The notes: generated by a model from the sequence alone, not told the origin. A DNA stretch of 64,000 nt from a virus (IMGVR_UViG_3300035703_000034:42381-106380), one strand, 5' to 3'. Positions 32,092 through 40,648 are shown, counted from the first letter of the stretch. Made by a program: numbers and translations.

Positions 32092-33564
32092 ATGGCGGTC
32101 ACGGAAACGATTCTTCAGCAGGCGGAGACCTTCATCGTCACCGCCATCACCGAGGCCTTCGCGGCCGAGGGCGACAGCATTGACCTGCGGCCGGGCACGC
32201 CGCAGTACGACCTGTTTGTGCGCGGCTTCCTCGCCGTGGTCGCGCAGATCGTCGACCAGCTGCAGCAGGCCCAGCGCAAGGTGACGGCGCTGTCGGCCAC
32301 GGAGCTGACGGACGCGGAGCTCGCGGCGCTCGGGGCGCGCTTCGGCGTGAGCCGGCGCGTGGGCGCGACCGCCCAGGGCACGGTGCGCGTGAAGTTCCGC
32401 GAGCGGGTGGCCGTCACGCTGACGACGAGCGACGCCTTTCTGGCCGGGGACCAGACCTACTACCCGACCGAGGACGTCGCGCTGCTGGCCGACGAGCTGA
32501 CGCAAGAACCTGTCTTGAACTACTGGTACGTCAACGTGCCGCTGATGGCGGCCACCAACGGGACGGCCAGCAACACGGGGGCCGGCACGGCCTTCACGTG
32601 CGCCAAGCTCGCGGGCGACCCCGCGCTCATCGAGGCGGTGGCGATCACGCCGCTGTCGGGCGGCCTGGACCAGGAGGACGCGACGGCCTACTTCGACCGG
32701 TTGCAGGCCGCCCCCTTGATCCGAAACCTGGTGAGCCGCAAGTCGATCGACGCGGTGCTGATGGGCGAGTTCGCGGGCGTCATCGAGCGGCTGCTGGTGG
32801 TGGGCTACCAGGAGCCCGAGATGCAGCGCGATCGCCTCGAGGTCGTCGACCCCGTGCTCGGCCCGATGACCATGCACGTGGGCGGGCACACGGACATCTA
32901 CGTCAAGACGCCCATCCGGCGCGAGACGGTGGAGTTCACGGTCTCGCCCGGCAACTACGTGATCGACCTCACGGACTACCGCGCGGTGCTGAAGGTCCAC
33001 AACGTGACCCTCAAGGGGAACGGCGACGTCAGCCCGTACTTCGAGCTGCGCGTGGCCGACCCGGCGCTGCGCTACTCGGCACTCGACACCGTGCAGCTGT
33101 TCGTCGACCCCGGCCTCTCCGAGGAGACCATCCAGGTCGACCTCTCGTACGCGCCGGACGTCGTGAGCATCCATGCGTACGTCAACGGCGACGAGCAGCG
33201 CATCACGAACGCCAACACGCTCGTGCGCCACTTCGTGCCCGTCTGGCTCGGGGCCGTCATCTACGTGGCGGGCGACGACGCCGCGATCGCGCAGGCGAAC
33301 GGCAACATCGCGGCCTACCTGGACGGCCTCGCCAACGGCGCGCCCGTCGTCGTCAGCAAGCTGACGGAGGCCATCTACCAGGGCGGGGCGCTGAACGTGC
33401 TGCAGGACTACGACCTCATCGCCCAGATCATCTACAACGACGGCACGTTGCTCGAGCGCACGGCGGACGAGGTGCTGACGATTGCGGACGACCTGCCCAA
33501 GGGCTTCTCGCAGCGGGTGGCGACCTACCTGAACGAGGGCGTGACCCTCGTGCAGCTGGGGTAG
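32092..33564 (+). CDS. Baseplate J/gp6-like protein
   Basis: DLRPGT..YDL; R..GATAQGTV; GGLDQEDATAYFDRL; GGHTDIYV. Confidence 0.8.
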   Translation: MAVTETILQQAETFIVTAITEAFAAEGDSIDLRPGTPQYDLFVRGFLAVVAQIVDQLQQAQRKVTALSATELTDAELAALGARFGVSRRVGATAQGTVRVKFRERVAVTLTTSDAFLAGDQTYYPTEDVALLADELTQEPVLNYWYVNVPLMAATNGTASNTGAGTAFTCAKLAGDPALIEAVAITPLSGGLDQEDATAYFDRLQAAPLIRNLVSRKSIDAVLMGEFAGVIERLLVVGYQEPEMQRDRLEVVDPVLGPMTMHVGGHTDIYVKTPIRRETVEFTVSPGNYVIDLTDYRAVLKVHNVTLKGNGDVSPYFELRVADPALRYSALDTVQLFVDPGLSEETIQVDLSYAPDVVSIHAYVNGDEQRITNANTLVRHFVPVWLGAVIYVAGDDAAIAQANGNIAAYLDGLANGAPVVVSKLTEAIYQGGALNVLQDYDLIAQIIYNDGTLLERTADEVLTIADDLPKGFSQRVATYLNEGVTLVQLG

Positions 33565-33568
33565 GCCC

Positions 33569-33949
33569 ATGCGCGACTACCTGGCCGTCCAGCACGCGCG
33601 CGAGAAAGACGGCGCCCCGCCCGGCGAGTACCTCGCCACCTACGAGCGGATGGGGCGCGCCAAAGGCGATCGCCTGCAGCGGACCCTCGTGCTGACGGAC
33701 GTGACCACGCCCGCGGGCGACCCGGTGACGGACCACGTCTGGCTCATCCACACGAAGGAGTGGCAGGGTGTGGCGCCGGGGTCGCGGGTGCGCTTCACGG
33801 CCCCCGCCCATGCCTACTTCAAGGACCGTGGCCGGGGGCTGATGGGCCGGGTGCCCAACCGGGAGATGGACTACGGCTTCTCCCGGCCCCTGGAAGTCAA
33901 GGCTGCCAGCGCGTATCAGGCCTATCTGGCCTGGGTCGGAGGCTACTAA
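33569..33949 (+). CDS. Hypothetical OB-fold-like protein
   Basis: DHVW...GSRVRFTA pattern. Confidence 0.55.
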   Translation: MRDYLAVQHAREKDGAPPGEYLATYERMGRAKGDRLQRTLVLTDVTTPAGDPVTDHVWLIHTKEWQGVAPGSRVRFTAPAHAYFKDRGRGLMGRVPNREMDYGFSRPLEVKAASAYQAYLAWVGGY

Positions 33950-33950
33950 A

Positions 33951-34370
33951 ATGAACCCCTATTTCGCCTATATATCTATGAAGGCCGCTTCTGACTTTTC
34001 AGACGCGCTGGACCTTTACGTGGTGGCCCACGACGCCCCGCTGAGCGAGCACATGCGCGCCCAGAACCGGGGCTACATCCCGCTGCACATGCTGAAGGAC
34101 AAGGGGCGCGACAGTCACCTCGTCTACGTGCACCGGATGAGCTACAACCCGGCGATGCACCTGAAGTCGGCCGACCCAGCAAAGTTCCACGCCCTGGTGC
34201 GCACGCACCTGGGCGGCCCCCCGGTCGTCGTGCCCGCCGCCCCGGCGGCCCTCCCCCCACCCCCCGGGGTGGGGGTGGCCCCGGGTGGGCAGACCGCTGT
34301 GGCGGTCCCCCCGGTGCCCGTGAAGCCGGTGGTTCCGGTTGCACCCCCTCCCCCGGGGGTGGGGGGCTAA
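33951..34370 (+). CDS. Hypothetical protein with Pro-rich C-terminus
   Basis: ORF ends the structural block; KAAS motif. Confidence 0.5.
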   Translation: MNPYFAYISMKAASDFSDALDLYVVAHDAPLSEHMRAQNRGYIPLHMLKDKGRDSHLVYVHRMSYNPAMHLKSADPAKFHALVRTHLGGPPVVVPAAPAALPPPPGVGVAPGGQTAVAVPPVPVKPVVPVAPPPPGVGG

Positions 34371-34400
34371 AAAAGACCCCCGAAACCCCTATATATACTT

Positions 34401-34962
34401 GACCCCCACATTAGCCCTTGAACAAAGGCTGGTGTGGGGTTCTTGGTTTGAGTCGGGCCTGCAGCCCGGCGTCCGTGGAAACGGAAGGCTCGCTGTGCGA
34501 GGCCGGCGAGGGTGCCATACGGACGGCACCCGTTGACCCGGTCTTTCAGAGTTAAGGGGAACCTCGCCACTGTTTGGTCAGGCGAGGCTGCGAGAATGAC
34601 CACCCCACCGTCCCGGCTTTGGGACGTTAAGCGGATACGCGACCGCGAAGGCCTGTCCCCTCGGGGGCAGAAGACTGGCATTCCCGAACCGGCCCCACGG
34701 ATGGGTGGGCCGGCTGCCAGACACATCTAGGGAGCTGCCGGGGTTTCCCGGCCCATGTCCCGCAAGCGACCACCTCTCCGTGGTGCGGGATAGTAACGTG
34801 CGGAGCGCTCCGCACGGCTGACGGTCGCAAGCCCCTATCGCGTGGGCAGTACGCGAGAGGTCTGGTCACGTGGACAGGCATCACGTGACGAACCCGACGC
34901 AGGGGTTGCCTGCGCACGTTCCCCACCCGCCCCCGGTCCGCTCTTGCGGCCGGGGGCTTTTT
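34401..34962 (+). ncRNA. Candidate large structured non-coding RNA (~560 nt)
   Basis: No credible ORF; about 15 back-to-back hairpins with G-U pairs on the + strand; upstream TATATA/TATACT; ends in an intrinsic terminator. Confidence 0.6.
34929..34962 (+). terminator. Intrinsic terminator
   Basis: GCCCCCGGtCCGC-TCTT-GCGGCCGGGGGC followed by T5. Confidence 0.8.
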
Positions 34963-34987
34963 GCGGTTCCGACCGCAGGAGGTTCAA

Positions 34988-35206
34988 ATGGACGGGCTTC
35001 AACTGCAAAAGGAACTGGAAGAGTTCGCCGAAGGACACGCCCAGCTCGAATTTGCAATTAACAAGATCAAGATCGGTTACAACGAGCAGCGCCTTCTGGC
35101 GCGACTCGACGCCGAGCAGGCGGCGACCGAGGCCGCCGGCGAGGCCGGGCGGCTGGAGTGCCGCTTGGCCGGCGGCCGCGTGGCCCCGGCCCCTCTGGCG
35201 GACTGA
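34988..35206 (+). CDS. Small hypothetical protein
   Basis: AGGAGG SD preceded by UNCG hairpin. Confidence 0.6.
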   Translation: MDGLQLQKELEEFAEGHAQLEFAINKIKIGYNEQRLLARLDAEQAATEAAGEAGRLECRLAGGRVAPAPLAD

Positions 35207-35317
35207 AGTCCGCCAGAGGCCCGCTCCGCAGAAGGAAAACTGCGTAACAAACCCGCCCCAGCCGGGCGTGACCGGGGACCCGCAAGGGCGAGACCGGAGG
35301 CGCGTTGGTATCAAAAA

Positions 35318-35378
35318 CTGACATCCAGGCTGCGTTAGCCTGCTGATGATGGCCCCGTCGCGGGGGCCGAAATGTCAG
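35318..35378 (+). ncRNA. Type III hammerhead ribozyme
   Basis: Stem III CUGACAU/AUGUCAG; cleavage triplet AUC; stem I CAGGCU/AGCCUG; CUGAUGA core plus extra U; stem II GGCCCC/GGGGCC; GAAA. Confidence 0.9.
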
Positions 35379-35435
35379 AAGTCTCGTGCTGTTTCGACGG
35401 CACGCAGAGGGCTGAAGGCCCGGGGAGAAAAGACC

Positions 35436-35795
35436 GTGAAGACCACGAATCGAGCGGAAGACCTGTACCAGGCGGGACAGTATCTGGGAACGATCACTGT
35501 CGTCGAGGGCAAGGAGGTAATCCTCCAGCCCTGGACCTACCGCCTCCGCTACGGCGGGGGCAAGCACGAGATCTCGTACGCCGTGAAGCGGGAGACAATT
35601 CCCGTCCTCCGGTGGGACGGCGACGTCATCGGGCGCAAGCCCACGGGCGTCGTGCAGGGGGTCTACCCCTTCGGGCCAGACTACGTCTCGGGCGGCCGGG
35701 CCCGTCTAGAGGAGCTCCTGGCGGCCCCCGAGACCCACGACCAGGAGTGCTACTGCCACTTGCACAAGGGCGCGGAGCGCTTGCTGAGGGTCTAG
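35436..35795 (+). CDS. Hypothetical protein downstream of hammerhead
   Basis: GGAG SD then GTG (MKTTNRAEDL); normal codon usage. Confidence 0.6.
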   Translation: MKTTNRAEDLYQAGQYLGTITVVEGKEVILQPWTYRLRYGGGKHEISYAVKRETIPVLRWDGDVIGRKPTGVVQGVYPFGPDYVSGGRARLEELLAAPETHDQECYCHLHKGAERLLRV

Positions 35796-35987
35796 CCAAC
35801 CGCCCGGCGACACGCACAGGTCCAGCCGTCTACCCGAGAAGGGCACAGACAGACGGCCCTCGTGCGTGTCGCCACCTCAACCCAGCCGGGGGTCAAGCCG
35901 GCGCGTCGGAAGTGGTCATGTCCGACGTCCCCAGTGTCAGGGGTTTGATGACACTATCACCTGCCGCTACGGCGGCAAGGAGGTCTG

Positions 35988-36473
35988 ATGAAGACCGAAT
36001 CCATGGGCGCCCCCCTGCACGGCGTGTGCCCGTCGGACCCCGAAGGGGTCTACCTCGGCCGCGCCACCTGGTGCGGGGTCGAGGTGGACCTCTGGTTCTG
36101 GGCCACGGCCTGGGACCGGGGGTCCATCGGGTACCGCCACGGCACCCGGGGGGACGAGTACGGGTCGATGCCCGTGCGCGGCCTCCAGGAGGCCGAGATG
36201 AGCCAGGCGCTGAAGGCCACCCCGGCCTTCGAGGCCTTCTGCCTGAAGATCAACAGGCAGAAGTCGGTCCTTGGCGAGGGCTACGTCCTCGCCGAGGGCA
36301 CCGTCTGGCGGAAGGCTCTCACGGCCGCCCGCCAGACGGGCCTGATCACGGAGCTGTCGCTCCAGGAGTCGGCGGACTTCTGGGCGGCCGGCGTGCTCCA
36401 GTGGGATGACCCCACCGGAGCGTCGCTGCGCTCGGCTTACGCCGAGGCGCGTTCCGCGATCGCAAGCCTGTAG
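35988..36473 (+). CDS. Hypothetical protein
   Basis: AAGGAGG SD preceded by C(UACG)G hairpin. Confidence 0.7.
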   Translation: MKTESMGAPLHGVCPSDPEGVYLGRATWCGVEVDLWFWATAWDRGSIGYRHGTRGDEYGSMPVRGLQEAEMSQALKATPAFEAFCLKINRQKSVLGEGYVLAEGTVWRKALTAARQTGLITELSLQESADFWAAGVLQWDDPTGASLRSAYAEARSAIASL

Positions 36474-36646
36474 GAACCCCCGCGCCGTGACGGCGCGTGA
36501 GTGGGGAGCTGTGCCGAACCCATAAGGCACGGTGAGCCCACACGTCGCAAACAGGCCGTAGGGGCGCCTGGTCAAGTCCGACGAAGCCCCAACGGACCCT
36601 CACCCGCGCGTGAGGGGGACTGGCCCCCCAATGGGCCGAGGTCAAC

Positions 36647-36823
36647 GTGGCGAGCACGCGCCTCGTCCTCCGTGACGGAGCCATCAAGCTCCTCACGGAG
36701 GACGGCGTGCTGTTCGACCTTCCGGTCAACCGGAAGGGCGAGTTGCCGCTCGGCGGCAACACGGACGCGCAGCTGCGCGTCCTCCGCCCGCTCCGGGACA
36801 CCGGGCGGGTCGAACAGCAATAG
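36647..36823 (+). CDS. 58-aa ORF embedded in a multibranch RNA structure (MASTRLVLRDGAIKLL...)
   Basis: GAGG SD then GTG; protein-like codon use; below ORF-track length cutoff. Confidence 0.45.
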   Translation: MASTRLVLRDGAIKLLTEDGVLFDLPVNRKGELPLGGNTDAQLRVLRPLRDTGRVEQQ

Positions 36824-36923
36824 GTTCATCCCTCTCCCTGGGGGCAAGCAGGGCGTCAGCGCGGGAAGCATACGACAACGCGCCAACCCGTACGGCCACG
36901 CCGTACAAACCAAACACAACGCT

Positions 36924-37015
36924 CACCCTCCAAGGTGGGACGTGTTTGTTTCACATCTCTTCACTCCATTGCGAGTGATCAGATGTGAAGCAGACGCGTC
37001 CCACCTTGGAGGGTG
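36924..37015 (+). repeat. 35-bp inverted repeat (long RNA hairpin)
   Basis: Arms 36924-36958 and 36981-37015; the three mismatches are all G-U on the + strand. Confidence 0.9.
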
Positions 37016-37099
37016 TGGATTACCGTTGCTTTTCCTTTAGCCCCGCTGAGCGTTCAGCCGGGGCGCAGTTGCCGTTCCGACGGCAGAAAGGAGTCCGAC

Positions 37100-37606
37100 G
37101 TGGACATCCTCCAGAACAACCCCACCACCTGGTCCAAGTGGACCTCGGTCGTCCTGACCACCGGCGTGCCGGGCGCCGGCAAAAGCACCCTCGCCGCCCG
37201 GCTCGTGGCCGAGTTCGGCTACGAGCAGCTGGAGCTCGACGAGCTCCGGGCCGAGCTCGGCGACCGGGCCGACCAGTCCCTCACCCCGGCCGCCGTCGCG
37301 CTGCGCGACGAGCGGCTCGCGGCGGCCATCGCGGCGGGTCGCAAGGTCGTCGTGAGCGACACCAACGCCCACTTCCCGTTCCGGGTGGCGCTCATCCGGG
37401 ACATCCTCAGTCTCGGCGTCCCGGCGGACGAGATCGCCATCGTCCACTTCAACGCGGACGTGGACGAGGCCAAGCGCCGCAACCGGGGGCGCGCCAGCGA
37501 GGTGCCCGAGGCGGTCATCGACCGGATGGCCGCGGCGCTCGAGGCCGCGCAGCCCTCGCTGGACGCGGAGCTCTACGGGCTCCAGTACCACGAGACGGAG
37601 CTCTAA
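37100..37606 (+). CDS. P-loop kinase (AAA_33/polynucleotide kinase-like)
   Basis: GVPGAGKST Walker A; VVVSDTN; RNRGR lid; AAAGGAG SD. Confidence 0.85.
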   Translation: MDILQNNPTTWSKWTSVVLTTGVPGAGKSTLAARLVAEFGYEQLELDELRAELGDRADQSLTPAAVALRDERLAAAIAAGRKVVVSDTNAHFPFRVALIRDILSLGVPADEIAIVHFNADVDEAKRRNRGRASEVPEAVIDRMAAALEAAQPSLDAELYGLQYHETEL

Positions 37607-37609
37607 GCC

Positions 37610-37918
37610 ATGAGCAACGTCGAGAAGGCTCGCCGCGAGCACCAGGGCGACAACCTCCTGGCCCTGCTGGCGGCGGGCCTGAAGCTCGGTCAGGTCGCGG
37701 CCGTGTCCGACGTCCCCGGCTGGGCGGCGATCCACGGCGCGATCACCGTGGTCGTCCCCAGGACGTTCGGCCCCCGCCTCGTCGTCCTCGCCGTGGACGA
37801 CTACGGCAGGGTCCGGGAGGTCGCCCGCCACGACCACCCGGAGACGGTCTCCCAGGAGGACCTCCGCGAGATGGCGGAGGACTTCCTCGCCGACCAGGTG
37901 GCCCACCACGCCTGGTAG
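37610..37918 (+). CDS. Hypothetical protein
   Basis: ORF in operon. Confidence 0.6.
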   Translation: MSNVEKARREHQGDNLLALLAAGLKLGQVAAVSDVPGWAAIHGAITVVVPRTFGPRLVVLAVDDYGRVREVARHDHPETVSQEDLREMAEDFLADQVAHHAW

Positions 37919-37972
37919 GTCGCCGGGTTTCACCCACCCCACACGCGCCGTTCCGACGGCAAAGGAGGAACG

Positions 37973-38314
37973 ATGAACAACAAAGCGCAACGTAAGGTCA
38001 AAAAACAGACGGCCACGGCCCGTTTCAAGGACCGAGCCAAGGTCGACGCGCTGCTGGCCGCCCGGCCGGACGCCAAAGTCCGGGAGCTGGGCCTACAGTG
38101 CTTTGTCGTGCACGCCTGCTGCTGCAGCTGTGACGACAACTGGTGTCGCGACAGCTGGCTCCCGGCCTGGGAGGTCACCGGCCTCTACAACCGGGAAATC
38201 GCCAACATCTTGAACGCCGCGGGCTTCGTGCCACGCGACACCCACCTGGTGGAGGTGTCAGACGAAAACCAGGCGAAGACCGCGCGGTTCGATCGTACAG
38301 AGAAGGAGGGCTGA
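37973..38314 (+). CDS. Hypothetical Cys-cluster protein
   Basis: AAGGAGG SD; HACCCSCDDNWC. Confidence 0.6.
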   Translation: MNNKAQRKVKKQTATARFKDRAKVDALLAARPDAKVRELGLQCFVVHACCCSCDDNWCRDSWLPAWEVTGLYNREIANILNAAGFVPRDTHLVEVSDENQAKTARFDRTEKEG

Positions 38315-38731: not shown

Positions 38732-39403
38732 ATGATCGAGATCAAGAACTCCCGCGGCCACGTGCTGCACACGGTCGACGCCGACACGCTCATCGGGGCG
38801 GACTTGTCGGGCCTCGACCTGACGGACGCCAACCTGCGCGGCGCGGACCTCAGCCACGCCAAGCTCGTGAAGACCAACCTCAGCTACGCGTGCCTGGAAA
38901 ACGCGGACTTCAACAGCGCCGAGTTGGATGAGACGCAGTTCGACGGTGCGGACTTGCGCGCGGCGAACTTCCGGACGCGGAACACAGATGCCAGCTACCG
39001 AGGTGACCGGACAGGAATCGAAGCCGTGTCGTTTATAGACGCGGACCTGCGGAACGCCAACTTCTGCAAGTGCGAGATTTTCTGGTCTTCGTTCTACGAT
39101 GCCGACCTGCGGGGCGCCCACTTCAAAGACGCCGAGTTCTTCGGTGACGACATGGAGTTCGCCTTCGCCGATGCGCGCAACGCAGACTTCAGCTTTGCAA
39201 CATTCAACAATGTACAGCTTAAAGGCGAAGGCGAGGACGACGGCCTTCCGTATCTCTGTGGCGCGGACTTCACCGAAGCCTCCTTCCTTGAGTCGTTCAT
39301 CGACGCACACCTTGATGGTGCAAACTTCATGCGCGCCCGCTTGGCTCGTGCCACGTTCAGCCCGTACGTTCAAGAACAGCTGAACGAGACAGTGCGGCGC
39401 TAA
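38732..39403 (+). CDS. Pentapeptide repeat protein
   Basis: A[DN][LF]xx repeats. Confidence 0.9.
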   Translation: MIEIKNSRGHVLHTVDADTLIGADLSGLDLTDANLRGADLSHAKLVKTNLSYACLENADFNSAELDETQFDGADLRAANFRTRNTDASYRGDRTGIEAVSFIDADLRNANFCKCEIFWSSFYDADLRGAHFKDAEFFGDDMEFAFADARNADFSFATFNNVQLKGEGEDDGLPYLCGADFTEASFLESFIDAHLDGANFMRARLARATFSPYVQEQLNETVRR

Positions 39404-39422
39404 CCCACCCACCCCGGCCCCA

Positions 39423-39456
39423 CCCGCCCCGCAACCCCACCGGTTGCGGGGCTTTC
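39423..39456 (+). terminator. Hairpin/weak terminator, copy 1 of a repeated element
   Basis: GCCCCGCAACC-N5-GGTTGCGGGGC-TTTC. Confidence 0.65.
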
Positions 39457-39474
39457 GCATGAGGACCCATCACC

Positions 39475-39930
39475 ATGCCCATCCCCGTCATCCGGTGCGT
39501 CCGCGAGAGCCGGGCGCCGTACGATCGGCGCACGGCGCTCAGGGGTCCCGAGGACGCTGCCCGTGCGGCGCGGGCCGTCATCGGCGACCCGGATCGCGAG
39601 CACTTCCTCACCATCCACCTGGACCGCAAGAACCGCATCTTGTCGGCGGAGATCACCGCCATCGGGACGCAGTCCGCGGTGCTGGTCGGTCCCCGGGAGA
39701 TCTTCCGCGCGGCGATCGCCGCCGACGCGGGCGCCCTCATCGTGGCGCACAACCACCCCAGCGGCGACCCGGCCCCGAGCCATGAGGATCGCGAGCTCAC
39801 GCGCAAGCTCCTCGAGGCAGGCGCGCTGCTCGGCATCACCCTGCTCGACCACCTCGTCCTCGGCGACGAGGACGCCACGTGCCCCCACCTCAGCCTCCGG
39901 GACGCGTACCCGGACCTCGGCTGGACCTGA
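39475..39930 (+). CDS. radC: RadC-like JAB domain protein
   Basis: REHF..I.LD.KN; PREIFRAA; AHNHPSGDPAPSHEDRELT; LLDHLV. Confidence 0.9.
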   Translation: MPIPVIRCVRESRAPYDRRTALRGPEDAARAARAVIGDPDREHFLTIHLDRKNRILSAEITAIGTQSAVLVGPREIFRAAIAADAGALIVAHNHPSGDPAPSHEDRELTRKLLEAGALLGITLLDHLVLGDEDATCPHLSLRDAYPDLGWT

Positions 39931-39950: not shown

Positions 39951-40580
39951 ATGAGGACGACACAAAAGTTACTCCGAGGCCATCGGACGGTGCCGCTTGA
40001 TGACGTGGCAAAGGTACTCGGGGCCGAGTATGTGTCAATAGACCCCGGCGAGCAAGTAGCCGCCGAGGCCTTTTTGGTCGATCGTCACGACTTTCAGCCG
40101 AACGGCTACTGCGGCCGCCCTGCAAACAAGGTGGCAATTTCGGAACGTCTACTGGGTACGGTCGAGAGCGGGGCAGTCAAAGGCGGCGACATCCTGCTAC
40201 AGTGCCGTCCGGTCACACTGGCTCAGCCGGCACTGGTAGCGGAGGACCCTGACGCACTCTGGTATCCAACCCAAACGATGCGGATCCTGCGCATGCGCGC
40301 GTACAGCCCCGTCAACGCGGTCATTTTGCATCGTTACCTGTCATCACGCGTCGGACAAGAGTTATTAAACGCCGCGGCAACGCACAGTGGCAAAGGTAAA
40401 CATTCGTACGTGCCGGTGGACGCGCTGCGGGCCTTGCCCGTCATCGTCCCGGACGATGAGACGGTCAGCCGAATCATGGCGGCGCACGACGCGATCCTCA
40501 CCGCGCACCAGGAGTTGGAGCGCGTCCAGCAGCGCATTGCCGCGCTGCGCGACGAGCCCTGGCTGACGTCCCTGACCTGA
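39951..40580 (+). CDS. Stand-alone type I R-M HsdS-like single target recognition domain
   Basis: VKGGDILL; YLSSRVGQ; LRALPVIVP..E..RI followed by a coiled coil; lower GC than neighbours. Confidence 0.55.
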   Translation: MRTTQKLLRGHRTVPLDDVAKVLGAEYVSIDPGEQVAAEAFLVDRHDFQPNGYCGRPANKVAISERLLGTVESGAVKGGDILLQCRPVTLAQPALVAEDPDALWYPTQTMRILRMRAYSPVNAVILHRYLSSRVGQELLNAAATHSGKGKHSYVPVDALRALPVIVPDDETVSRIMAAHDAILTAHQELERVQQRIAALRDEPWLTSLT

Positions 40581-40594
40581 CCAAATCCCGCGCC

Positions 40595-40628
40595 CCCGCC
40601 CCGCAACCACCCTGGTTGCGGGGCTTTC
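40595..40628 (+). terminator. Hairpin/weak terminator, copy 2
   Basis: Same stem as 39423-39456 with a different loop. Confidence 0.65.
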
Positions 40629-40648
40629 TCTTTGAAAGGAGCCCCACG

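Follow-up and report, generated by a model that had tools for sequence, protein, structure and literature searches.

What kind of element is the strongly folding 2.7-kb stretch at positions 34401 to 37100 of this viral DNA, which holds four small open reading frames (ORFs), the structured spacers between them and two motifs of self-cleaving ribozymes? The stretch lies in a window of 64,000 nucleotides (nt), the whole DNA presented for analysis (IMGVR_UViG_3300035703_000034:42381-106380), which is part of a 106-kb IMG/VR virus record with a CheckV completeness of 51%. The phage is uncultivated, its G+C content is about 67%, and its full genome is probably about 200 kb long. We propose, with moderate confidence, that the stretch is a mosaic region of ORFan genes whose + strand transcript is cut by two ribozymes of known classes, and possibly by RNase III, into hairpin-capped mRNAs.

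An initial annotation had read the same DNA as a coherent, undescribed RNA operon with a self-cleaving transcript and a noncoding RNA (ncRNA) of about 560 nt. Its descriptive part holds up in our analysis: the excess of structure is unmatched in the window, the ORF-free block and the four small ORFs are there, the hammerhead is complete, the long duplex and the UNCG-loop hairpins ahead of ORFs are present, and the stretch sits at the boundary that was described. The self-cleaving + strand transcript stands at the level of motifs, now with two ribozymes and not one. The undescribed operon is not supported, for reasons that come mainly from the relatives.

Two self-cleaving ribozyme motifs

Both motifs lie on the + strand, with the following coordinates.

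34757-34828, + strand: hepatitis delta virus (HDV)-like self-cleaving ribozyme, matching RF02682, predicted cut at 34756/34757
34757-63/34785-91 (P1), 34776-77/34792-93 (P1.1), 34766-71/34823-28 (P2), 34772-74/34782-84 (P3) and 34797-803/34810-16 (P4), + strand: helices of the HDV-like ribozyme
35318-35378, + strand: type III hammerhead, predicted cut after C35325, triplet AUC
35318-23/35373-78 (stem III), 35326-31/35337-42 (stem I) and 35351-56/35363-68 (stem II), + strand: hammerhead helices
35343-49 (CUGAUGA), 35350 (extra U) and 35369-72 (GAAA), + strand: hammerhead core

At gathering thresholds, Rfam returned nothing in the window and nothing in seven related loci. In E-value mode over 34300-37200 it reported the HDV-like match, which the initial annotation had not seen, and apart from it no credible family. 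The match is to RF02682 (the F. prausnitzii model) with 30.6 bits, an E value of 0.0044 in 2.9 kb and of 3.8e-5 over the full record, in which no other site matches. The nested double pseudoknot is complete, with P1, P1.1, P2, P3 and P4 in canonical order. The RF02682 model scores nested helices only and leaves out the P2 and P1.1 pseudoknots; both are present (6 and 2 base pairs [bp]) although they go unscored. P1 opens with the pair G34757-U34791. The candidate catalytic C is 34818 (alignment column 69), in J4/2, two nucleotides past P4, and it is invariant in all copies.

We found further copies in other viral contigs. The closest relative compared over the baseplate gene, L004 (50% identity in the baseplate protein), carries a copy on the same strand (RF02682 E value, 5.4e-4) about 1.05 kb past its baseplate gene; the distance in the window is 1.19 kb. 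This copy follows homologs of the baseplate J gene and of the 139-amino-acid (aa) ORF, plus the AT-rich motif TATATATA. Apart from the ribozyme (82% over 74 nt; E value, 1.6e-13), no DNA of the window aligns with L004. A third copy, in the unrelated viral contig L020, came from a pattern scan. When the three full copies were aligned, 25 of 25 pairs held and 75 of 75 cells were paired, compared with 28 to 48% in slid controls. Six pairs are compensatory across the three sequences, two each in P1, P1.1 and P4; the opening pair of P1 is G-U in L004 too and G-C in L020. P2 is invariant in the three complete copies and covaries in a fourth, L035, which is cut by its contig end. Identity of 76 to 82% with compensatory changes, across phages that otherwise share no DNA, therefore points to selection on the ribozyme fold. 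Judged from sequence, the HDV-like ribozyme is very probably real.

The surroundings of the copies differ. In both L004 and L020, some 20 nt separate the end of the ribozyme from a downstream Shine-Dalgarno (SD) site and ATG, and Pfam found no match for the leader proteins downstream of the ribozyme. In the window, three hairpins, a terminator-like hairpin and a UNCG hairpin intervene between the ribozyme and the next SD. RF02682 and RF00008, searched against the complete records of five relatives, returned the L004 HDV-like copy only. Seven pattern matches to the HDV-like core in bacterial genomes were rejected as chance, as they lie inside coding sequence, lack P1 and score low with our own model; matches in L030-L034 and L036, and likewise L034:10682, were rejected on the same grounds.

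The hammerhead has stems of 7, 6 and 6 bp, stem III being 6 bp plus the A15.1-U16.1 pair and stem I 6 to 7 bp, and loops of 5 and 6 nt. All conserved core positions are present (CUGANGA, GAAA, A15.1-U16.1 and H17), with one extra U after A9. A descriptor consisting of the core, U-H, three stems of at least 4 bp and zero or one inserted base after A9 matched once in both strands of the 106-kb record and never in 150 dinucleotide shuffles; loosened to 3-bp stems, it gave 0.027 matches per genome in the shuffles. The minimum free energy (MFE) fold of 35318-35378 is exactly the hammerhead three-way junction (z, -3.9). A passage of PMC3705267 that cites De la Pena and Flores 2001 describes a natural viroid hammerhead with an extra nucleotide between A9 and G10.1, where a U raised cleavage 3- to 4-fold. 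AUC is among the fastest, efficient cleavage triplets after transcription (PMC1636495). On its motif and statistics, this hammerhead is likely to be real.

Scanning for this core including its extra U led us to a type I hammerhead, recognized by eye, in the intergenic leader of two other IMG/VR phage contigs (L028, 2700-2760; L029, 1565-1630, - strand). This motif shares the extra U after A9; its stem II has 7 bp and its stem I has 5 bp, stem III is a hairpin and the cleavage site is GUC. Rfam at an E value of 1 does not report the L028 motif.

Genes, gaps and hairpins of the stretch

We scanned the whole 64 kb for folding in 120-nt segments with a step of 60 and 25 dinucleotide shuffles per segment. 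The mean folding z was -2.83 inside the 2.7-kb stretch versus -0.53 outside it. The 2.7-kb running mean of z is lowest here (-3.0; window-wide mean, -0.63; standard deviation, 0.62).

A baseplate J-like gene (32092-33564) and then two small genes lie upstream. The genes downstream are all on the + strand; they encode a polynucleotide-kinase-like P-loop kinase, a pentapeptide-repeat protein and a RadC-like JAB protein, besides many small ORFs. The stretch thus marks the junction of the structural module and an accessory gene array. Coding and noncoding DNA were told apart by plotting G+C content per codon position (GC2 and GC3 for the second and third), which separates them cleanly in this genome. 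Coding signal covers 33951-34370, 34988-35206, 35436-35795, 35988-36473, 36647-36823 and 37100 onward, with GC3 of 0.78 to 0.98 and GC2 of 0.41 to 0.54 in the coding intervals of the region. Codon periodicity is absent from five gaps, 34371-34987 (617 nt), 35207-35435, 35796-35987, 36474-36646 and 36824-37099. Thus about 1.5 of the 2.7 kb, or about half, is noncoding, a share that is unusual in a phage. The features other than the ribozymes are as follows.

34390-34402, + strand: AT-rich motif TATATATA, then CTTGA, with a -10-like TATACT inside; putative promoter
34405-34553, + strand: leader segment IG1a with four hairpins, of which the first is at the putative 5' end; -75.1 kcal/mol on + and -62.4 on -
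34554-34756, + strand: leader segment IG1b, consecutive hairpins, the last of which ends 3 nt ahead of the HDV-like cleavage site
34927-34962, + strand: intrinsic-terminator-like hairpin, then a U run; -28.9 kcal/mol, z -5.5
34962-34977, + strand: UCCG-loop hairpin directly 5' of the SD of the 72-aa ORF; repeat family D1, exact 14-nt motif
34988-35206, + strand: 72-aa ORF, ORFan; GC2 0.42, GC3 0.78
35192-35219, + strand: perfect 13-bp hairpin across the stop codon of the 72-aa ORF; inverted repeat I18, segments with z -6.3 and -4.6
35385-35404, + strand: 8-bp UUCG hairpin between the hammerhead and the SD of the 119-aa ORF
35436-35795, + strand: 119-aa ORF, ORFan; GC3 0.89
35806-35873, + strand: branched long hairpin in spacer IG3; -41.2 kcal/mol, z -5.8
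35962-35977, + strand: UACG hairpin directly 5' of the SD of the 161-aa ORF
35988-36473, + strand: 161-aa ORF, ORFan, with unusually structured mRNA; GC3 0.94
36474-36646, + strand: spacer IG4, several hairpins by fold prediction
36647-36823, + strand: 58-aa ORF whose RNA is nearly all paired; GC2 0.41, GC3 0.92
36917-37028, + strand: 41-bp near-perfect hairpin (core 36924-37015), then a U-rich tract; candidate RNase III site or large terminator
37069-37086, + strand: UCCG hairpin directly 5' of the kinase SD
37100-37606, + strand: P-loop kinase of polynucleotide-kinase/PSTK type; AAA_33 2.5e-21, phrog_505 polynucleotide kinase 2.6e-16

The folding excess extends over gaps and genes. The 617-nt gap has a z of -5.1 on + and -5.4 on -. 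Segments of the 161-aa ORF have z values of -4 to -7.7, and its folding energy is -323.5 on + versus -282.9 on -; its coding signature is perfect, yet its mRNA folds 40 kcal/mol better on + than on -. The RNA of the 58-aa ORF reaches -123.6 kcal/mol, with segment z values as low as -9.6.

All ORFs of the stretch are ORFans in our searches. The 72-aa ORF is without match in Pfam, PHROG and NCBIfam and is the sole member of its cluster. The 119-aa ORF matched only itself among 5.8 billion clusters, as did the 161-aa ORF among 1.8 billion representatives; the Atlas structure model of the latter has low confidence and yielded no usable match. A protein search with the 58-aa ORF returned only itself. 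Its cluster has six members that differ mostly by non-synonymous changes, and we noted that most of these are radical residue changes (L43W, R50P and a four-change run at residues 23-27). Constraint on this ORF at the protein level looks weak, which makes its status as a gene uncertain. GenBank phages gave neither a DNA nor a protein match to the stretch, the baseplate gene or the 161-aa ORF, and single-protein scans against viral contigs gave zero matches. The 139-aa ORF has a C-terminal tail rich in proline and glycine (34240-34370), the DNA of which is a GC-rich palindrome (34344-34365) followed by six A.

The 106-kb record contains the octamer TATATATA a single time, and the longer motif occurs in none of 100 shuffles. 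It recurs at the syntenic place in L004 (12311-12323), followed by a similar TTGA, where protein identity is just 50%. In both genomes, a strong hairpin starts within about 10 nt after it. The site may be a promoter with a 5'-terminal stabilizing hairpin. A sigma-70 scan of 33500-38000 found no site, a scan that does not cover phage-specific promoters. A second word, GACGTTAA, is common to the window and L004 and was set aside because its frequency in the window is no higher than chance.

Hairpins with UNCG loops recur ahead of genes. The 14-nt motif has four exact copies within 3 kb, all on +, and a hairpin of this kind precedes the kinase and three of the four small ORFs (72, 119 and 161 aa). 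When looser copies are counted, it also abuts the SD of the genes at 37973 and 41060. The long hairpin has 41 bp, 35 of them contiguous, with -83.2 kcal/mol and a z of -13; on the - strand, three G-U pairs turn into mismatches and the energy is -75.5 kcal/mol. It is longer than the roughly 20 bp of near-continuous double-stranded RNA (dsRNA) expected of an RNase III substrate, and cutting by that enzyme is plausible.

The kinase gene at 37100-37606 best matches the PNKP kinase domain, PSTK (tRNA(Sec) kinase) and bacterial Pnkp. This stand-alone kinase adjoins the stretch as a neighbor and is not shown to belong to the system. The 5'-OH ends left by ribozyme cleavage are a possible substrate for it, but the X3 relative (described below) has another gene in its place. 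The accessory array at 38732-39930 includes the pentapeptide-repeat protein (Pfam, 1.5e-27) and the RadC-like JAB domain protein (1.2e-36), which are of a kind typical of accessory or counter-defense regions of phages. By inspection, two near-identical terminator-like hairpins with U runs lie on the + strand, one after the pentapeptide-repeat gene (about 39426-39455) and one after the gene that ends at 40580 (40596-40632); they form a second repeated intergenic element. A search of the window for tRNA and tmRNA found none.

Conserved spacers and exchanged cassettes

The relatives compared were one present in a metagenome sequencing run from another study (X3), L004 and L005-L007; they do not include the closest ones, those whose baseplate identity is 99% and 78% and a 71-kb contig that carries a variant of the 58-aa ORF. 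A metagenome scan yielded no closer relative, and the sequencing runs listed for the stretch include no RNA run.

The X3 variant is known from contig differences only. An 882-nt contig reads 34429-34553, 42 other letters, 35803-35955, 326 other letters and 36479-36714. A second contig reads 36696-37085; its divergence begins exactly where the UNCG hairpin ends. X3 thus keeps spacers, plus the 58-aa ORF between two of them, at an identity of at least 95%. It lacks 34554-35802, a block that holds the remaining part of the leader, both ribozymes and the 72-aa and 119-aa ORFs, and the 326 other letters replace the 161-aa cassette. Of the X3 junctions, one coincides exactly with the end of the hairpin at 37085; the others come after stop codons (two) or before a hairpin.

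The substitutions bear on the RNA structure. IG1a (34429-34553) has three in X3, one breaking a predicted pair and two in unpaired positions, and IG4 (36479-36646) has eight. In the long hairpin, 36933 A>G and 37006 U>C change both sides of one pair in a compensatory way, and in IG3 a G-C pair becomes G-U on + through the substitution at 35870. Four X3 substitutions are switches between G-U and A-U or between G-C and G-U, which keep pairing in the + RNA only. Covariation among homologs is present in the HDV-like ribozyme and one long-hairpin pair, and it was found nowhere else in the stretch. An exact word from the long hairpin was not found in viral contigs.

The more distant relatives diverge further. 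The leader IG1b has no similarity to L004, and L005-L007 have long gaps past the baseplate module with only a mild folding excess and no ribozyme matches. It is here that the initial idea of a coherent RNA operon around a conserved 560-nt ncRNA finds no support. L004 shares only the 72-nt ribozyme, X3 is without 34554-35802, both ribozyme classes are known, and the distant relatives have only mild structure at this place.

Competing explanations and known counterparts

The explanation that we favor runs as follows. The accessory region after the baseplate module would be read on the + strand as a long transcript, perhaps from the unique TATATATA, and two cis-acting ribozymes would cut it during synthesis. 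The HDV-like cut at 34756/34757 would free a hairpin-rich leader of about 350 nt ending in a 2',3'-cyclic phosphate, while the RNA downstream would keep a 5'-OH buried in the compact ribozyme fold. The hammerhead cut after 35325 would part the 72-aa ORF from the 119-aa ORF. A UNCG-loop hairpin would stand just 5' of the ribosome binding site of each cistron, and the many stable hairpins of the spacers would shield the new ends and perhaps also stop or pause transcription. Ahead of the kinase gene, the 41-bp hairpin would be a likely RNase III site or large terminator. The spacers would act as a conserved scaffold, on which cassettes of hairpin, SD and ORF, including those bearing ribozymes, are gained, lost or swapped among relatives. 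Our analysis establishes the motifs and their statistics, the mosaic pattern and the covariation of the HDV-like ribozyme; that the region is transcribed and cleaved, that the ends are protected and that RNase III acts on it are steps that we infer.

Several observations weigh against this explanation. The HDV-like score of 30.6 bits is below the RF02682 gathering threshold of 44, and the alignment consists of three to four sequences only. The hammerhead scores 14.4 bits with RF00008, for which the gathering threshold is 48.5, and gave no match at an E value of 10 across the record. However, Rfam also misses the L028 hammerhead, so the low Rfam score is weak evidence against the motif at 35318-35378. 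The hammerhead is without covariation support because X3, the sole relative covering the place, has no hammerhead and L004 ends before it. Because a terminator-like hairpin stands downstream of the HDV-like ribozyme and upstream of the 72-aa ORF, read-through must be assumed. Of the X3 substitutions at paired spacer positions, about half break predicted pairs, in weaker helices. Finally, total folding energy has no consistent advantage on +. In favor of + strand RNA, the genes, SD sites and terminators are all on that strand. Folding clearly favors + over - for 34405-34553, the long hairpin and the 161-aa ORF; other spacers show no such preference. The bias toward G-U mismatches on + that the initial annotation had emphasized is suggestive only: isolated G/U versus A/C oppositions number 11:6 in the stretch and 61:83 in the background.

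A rival explanation is that the hairpins serve mainly as cassette boundaries and transcription signals, similar to PeSL elements, that promote illegitimate recombination and terminate or insulate transcription, with the ribozyme motifs as hitchhiking or decaying passengers of imported cassettes that contribute little to expression. The X3 data suit this account, since spacers are at least 95% identical while cassettes were swapped, one junction falls exactly at 37085 and two just past stop codons. It also draws on the four exact copies of the hairpin motif with the paired repeat D2, on the terminator-like hairpins, on the ORFan status of every ORF in the stretch and on the PeSL precedent (PMC2839356 and PMC4122927). 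However, a passenger in decay would hardly be 76 to 82% identical, with compensatory changes, between phages that share no other DNA, nor would its hammerhead core keep all conserved positions, and the promoter component of PeSL was not found in the sigma-70 scan. We regard it as unlikely as the main explanation; it can hold together with the ribozyme-processed mosaic. The inverted repeats could instead act as DNA, as cruciforms, protein sites or a replication or packaging signal, with RNA structure as a by-product. For the 617-nt gap and several spacers, z and energy are nearly alike on both strands, and the unique AT-rich palindrome at 34390 could be a DNA site. But both the double pseudoknot and the hammerhead core are RNA motifs specific to one strand, the G-U pairs of the long hairpin turn into A-C mismatches on the opposite strand at a cost of 8 kcal/mol, X3 substitutions keep pairing through G-U on + only, and the hairpins stand at fixed spacing from SD sites. 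A role as DNA is very improbable.

The remaining readings look for something new in the RNA. About 34405-34961 could be one large structured ncRNA gene, and the whole stretch an undescribed RNA-based system (riboregulator, decoy or scaffold) whose parts are released by ribozymes or RNase III. The putative promoter, the 5' hairpin and the terminator-like 3' end bracket about 555 nt without coding signal, the folding z is about -5, IG1a favors + by 13 kcal/mol, and X3, in limited data, conserves the structured spacers better than the end of the 139-aa ORF. Nevertheless, the relatives do not conserve the block as a unit: L004 shares the ribozyme alone, with a gene directly after it, X3 retains 34429-34553 only, and L005-L007 have no comparable structure. 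Rfam offers no family besides the HDV-like match, and covariation is limited to the ribozyme and one long-hairpin pair. We hold this to be quite improbable. There is, lastly, a slim chance that the structured spacers 34405-34553, 35803-35955, 36479-36646 and 36824-37085 are functional RNAs of undescribed classes (for example, processing ribozymes or anti-defense dsRNA decoys), that the ribozyme pair excises a 569-nt RNA with the 72-aa ORF that could circularize, or both. The 5'-OH and 2',3'-cyclic phosphate of the 569-nt RNA are substrate ends of an RtcB-type ligase, which could make a circular phage mRNA of it; a search of the 106 kb, about half of the genome, found neither RtcB nor RNA ligase families. 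The heavy structure of the spacers and of two ORFs, and the conservation of spacers amid gene turnover, are the residue that holds a small chance of novelty.

The ribozyme-processed mosaic that we favor has counterparts in other phages. RNase III hairpins lie between the cistrons of the polycistronic mRNA in the early region of phage T7 and leave stabilizing stems once cut. The long intercistronic hairpin here is like them, whereas the T7 sites are shorter and have internal loops, and the candidate site here is a 41-bp near-perfect duplex with a U-rich tract. Perreault et al. 2011 reported ribozymes (hammerheads) flanking genes in prophage transcripts and proposed that they cut them into gene-length mRNAs (PMC3088659). 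As there, the ribozymes here sit in intergenic spacers of a phage polycistronic unit and bracket single small genes of varying identity. Unlike there, two classes are combined, an HDV-like ribozyme and a hammerhead with an extra U after A9 and an AUC triplet, and the spacers are far longer and more structured.

The HDV-like motif resembles RF02682/drz-Fpra in its nested double pseudoknot, its P3 and L3, which are near-identical to the family consensus, the G-U that opens P1, the C in J4/2 and its 5'-leader position just upstream of a gene. It differs in its score (30.6 bits, below 44), in a short, GC-rich P2, in a P1.1 of C-G and U-A and in its source, a high-GC phage from a subsurface metagenome, with four copies found, all in viral contigs. 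The theta ribozymes of gut phages (PMC10879173) likewise use an HDV-like fold to form phage RNA ends, but they are minimal and process tRNA 3' ends, whereas here P4 is full, protein-coding genes are next to it and no tRNA lies in the window. In T4-type phages, PeSL cassettes are repeated stem-loops that serve as mobile regulatory elements (PMC2839356 and PMC4122927). Common to both are a repeated stem-loop ahead of small ORFan genes, a hyperplastic region and possibly motif-bounded indels between close relatives; here, in contrast, no early-promoter component was found, the UNCG hairpin abuts the SD, and one of four junctions falls exactly at a hairpin.

The stretch is a good, fresh example of an arrangement known from other phages and does not amount to a new kind of system. 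It adds a small, covariation-backed subgroup of HDV-like ribozymes below the Rfam threshold, found in the 5' leaders of protein-coding genes of high-GC environmental phages, and it presents two different self-cleaving classes that bracket one tiny phage gene. It offers a test bed for the old proposal that phage ribozymes cut polycistronic RNA into units with defined, protected ends. The conserved spacers amid swapped cassettes may also bear on how ORFans are shuffled in large phages.

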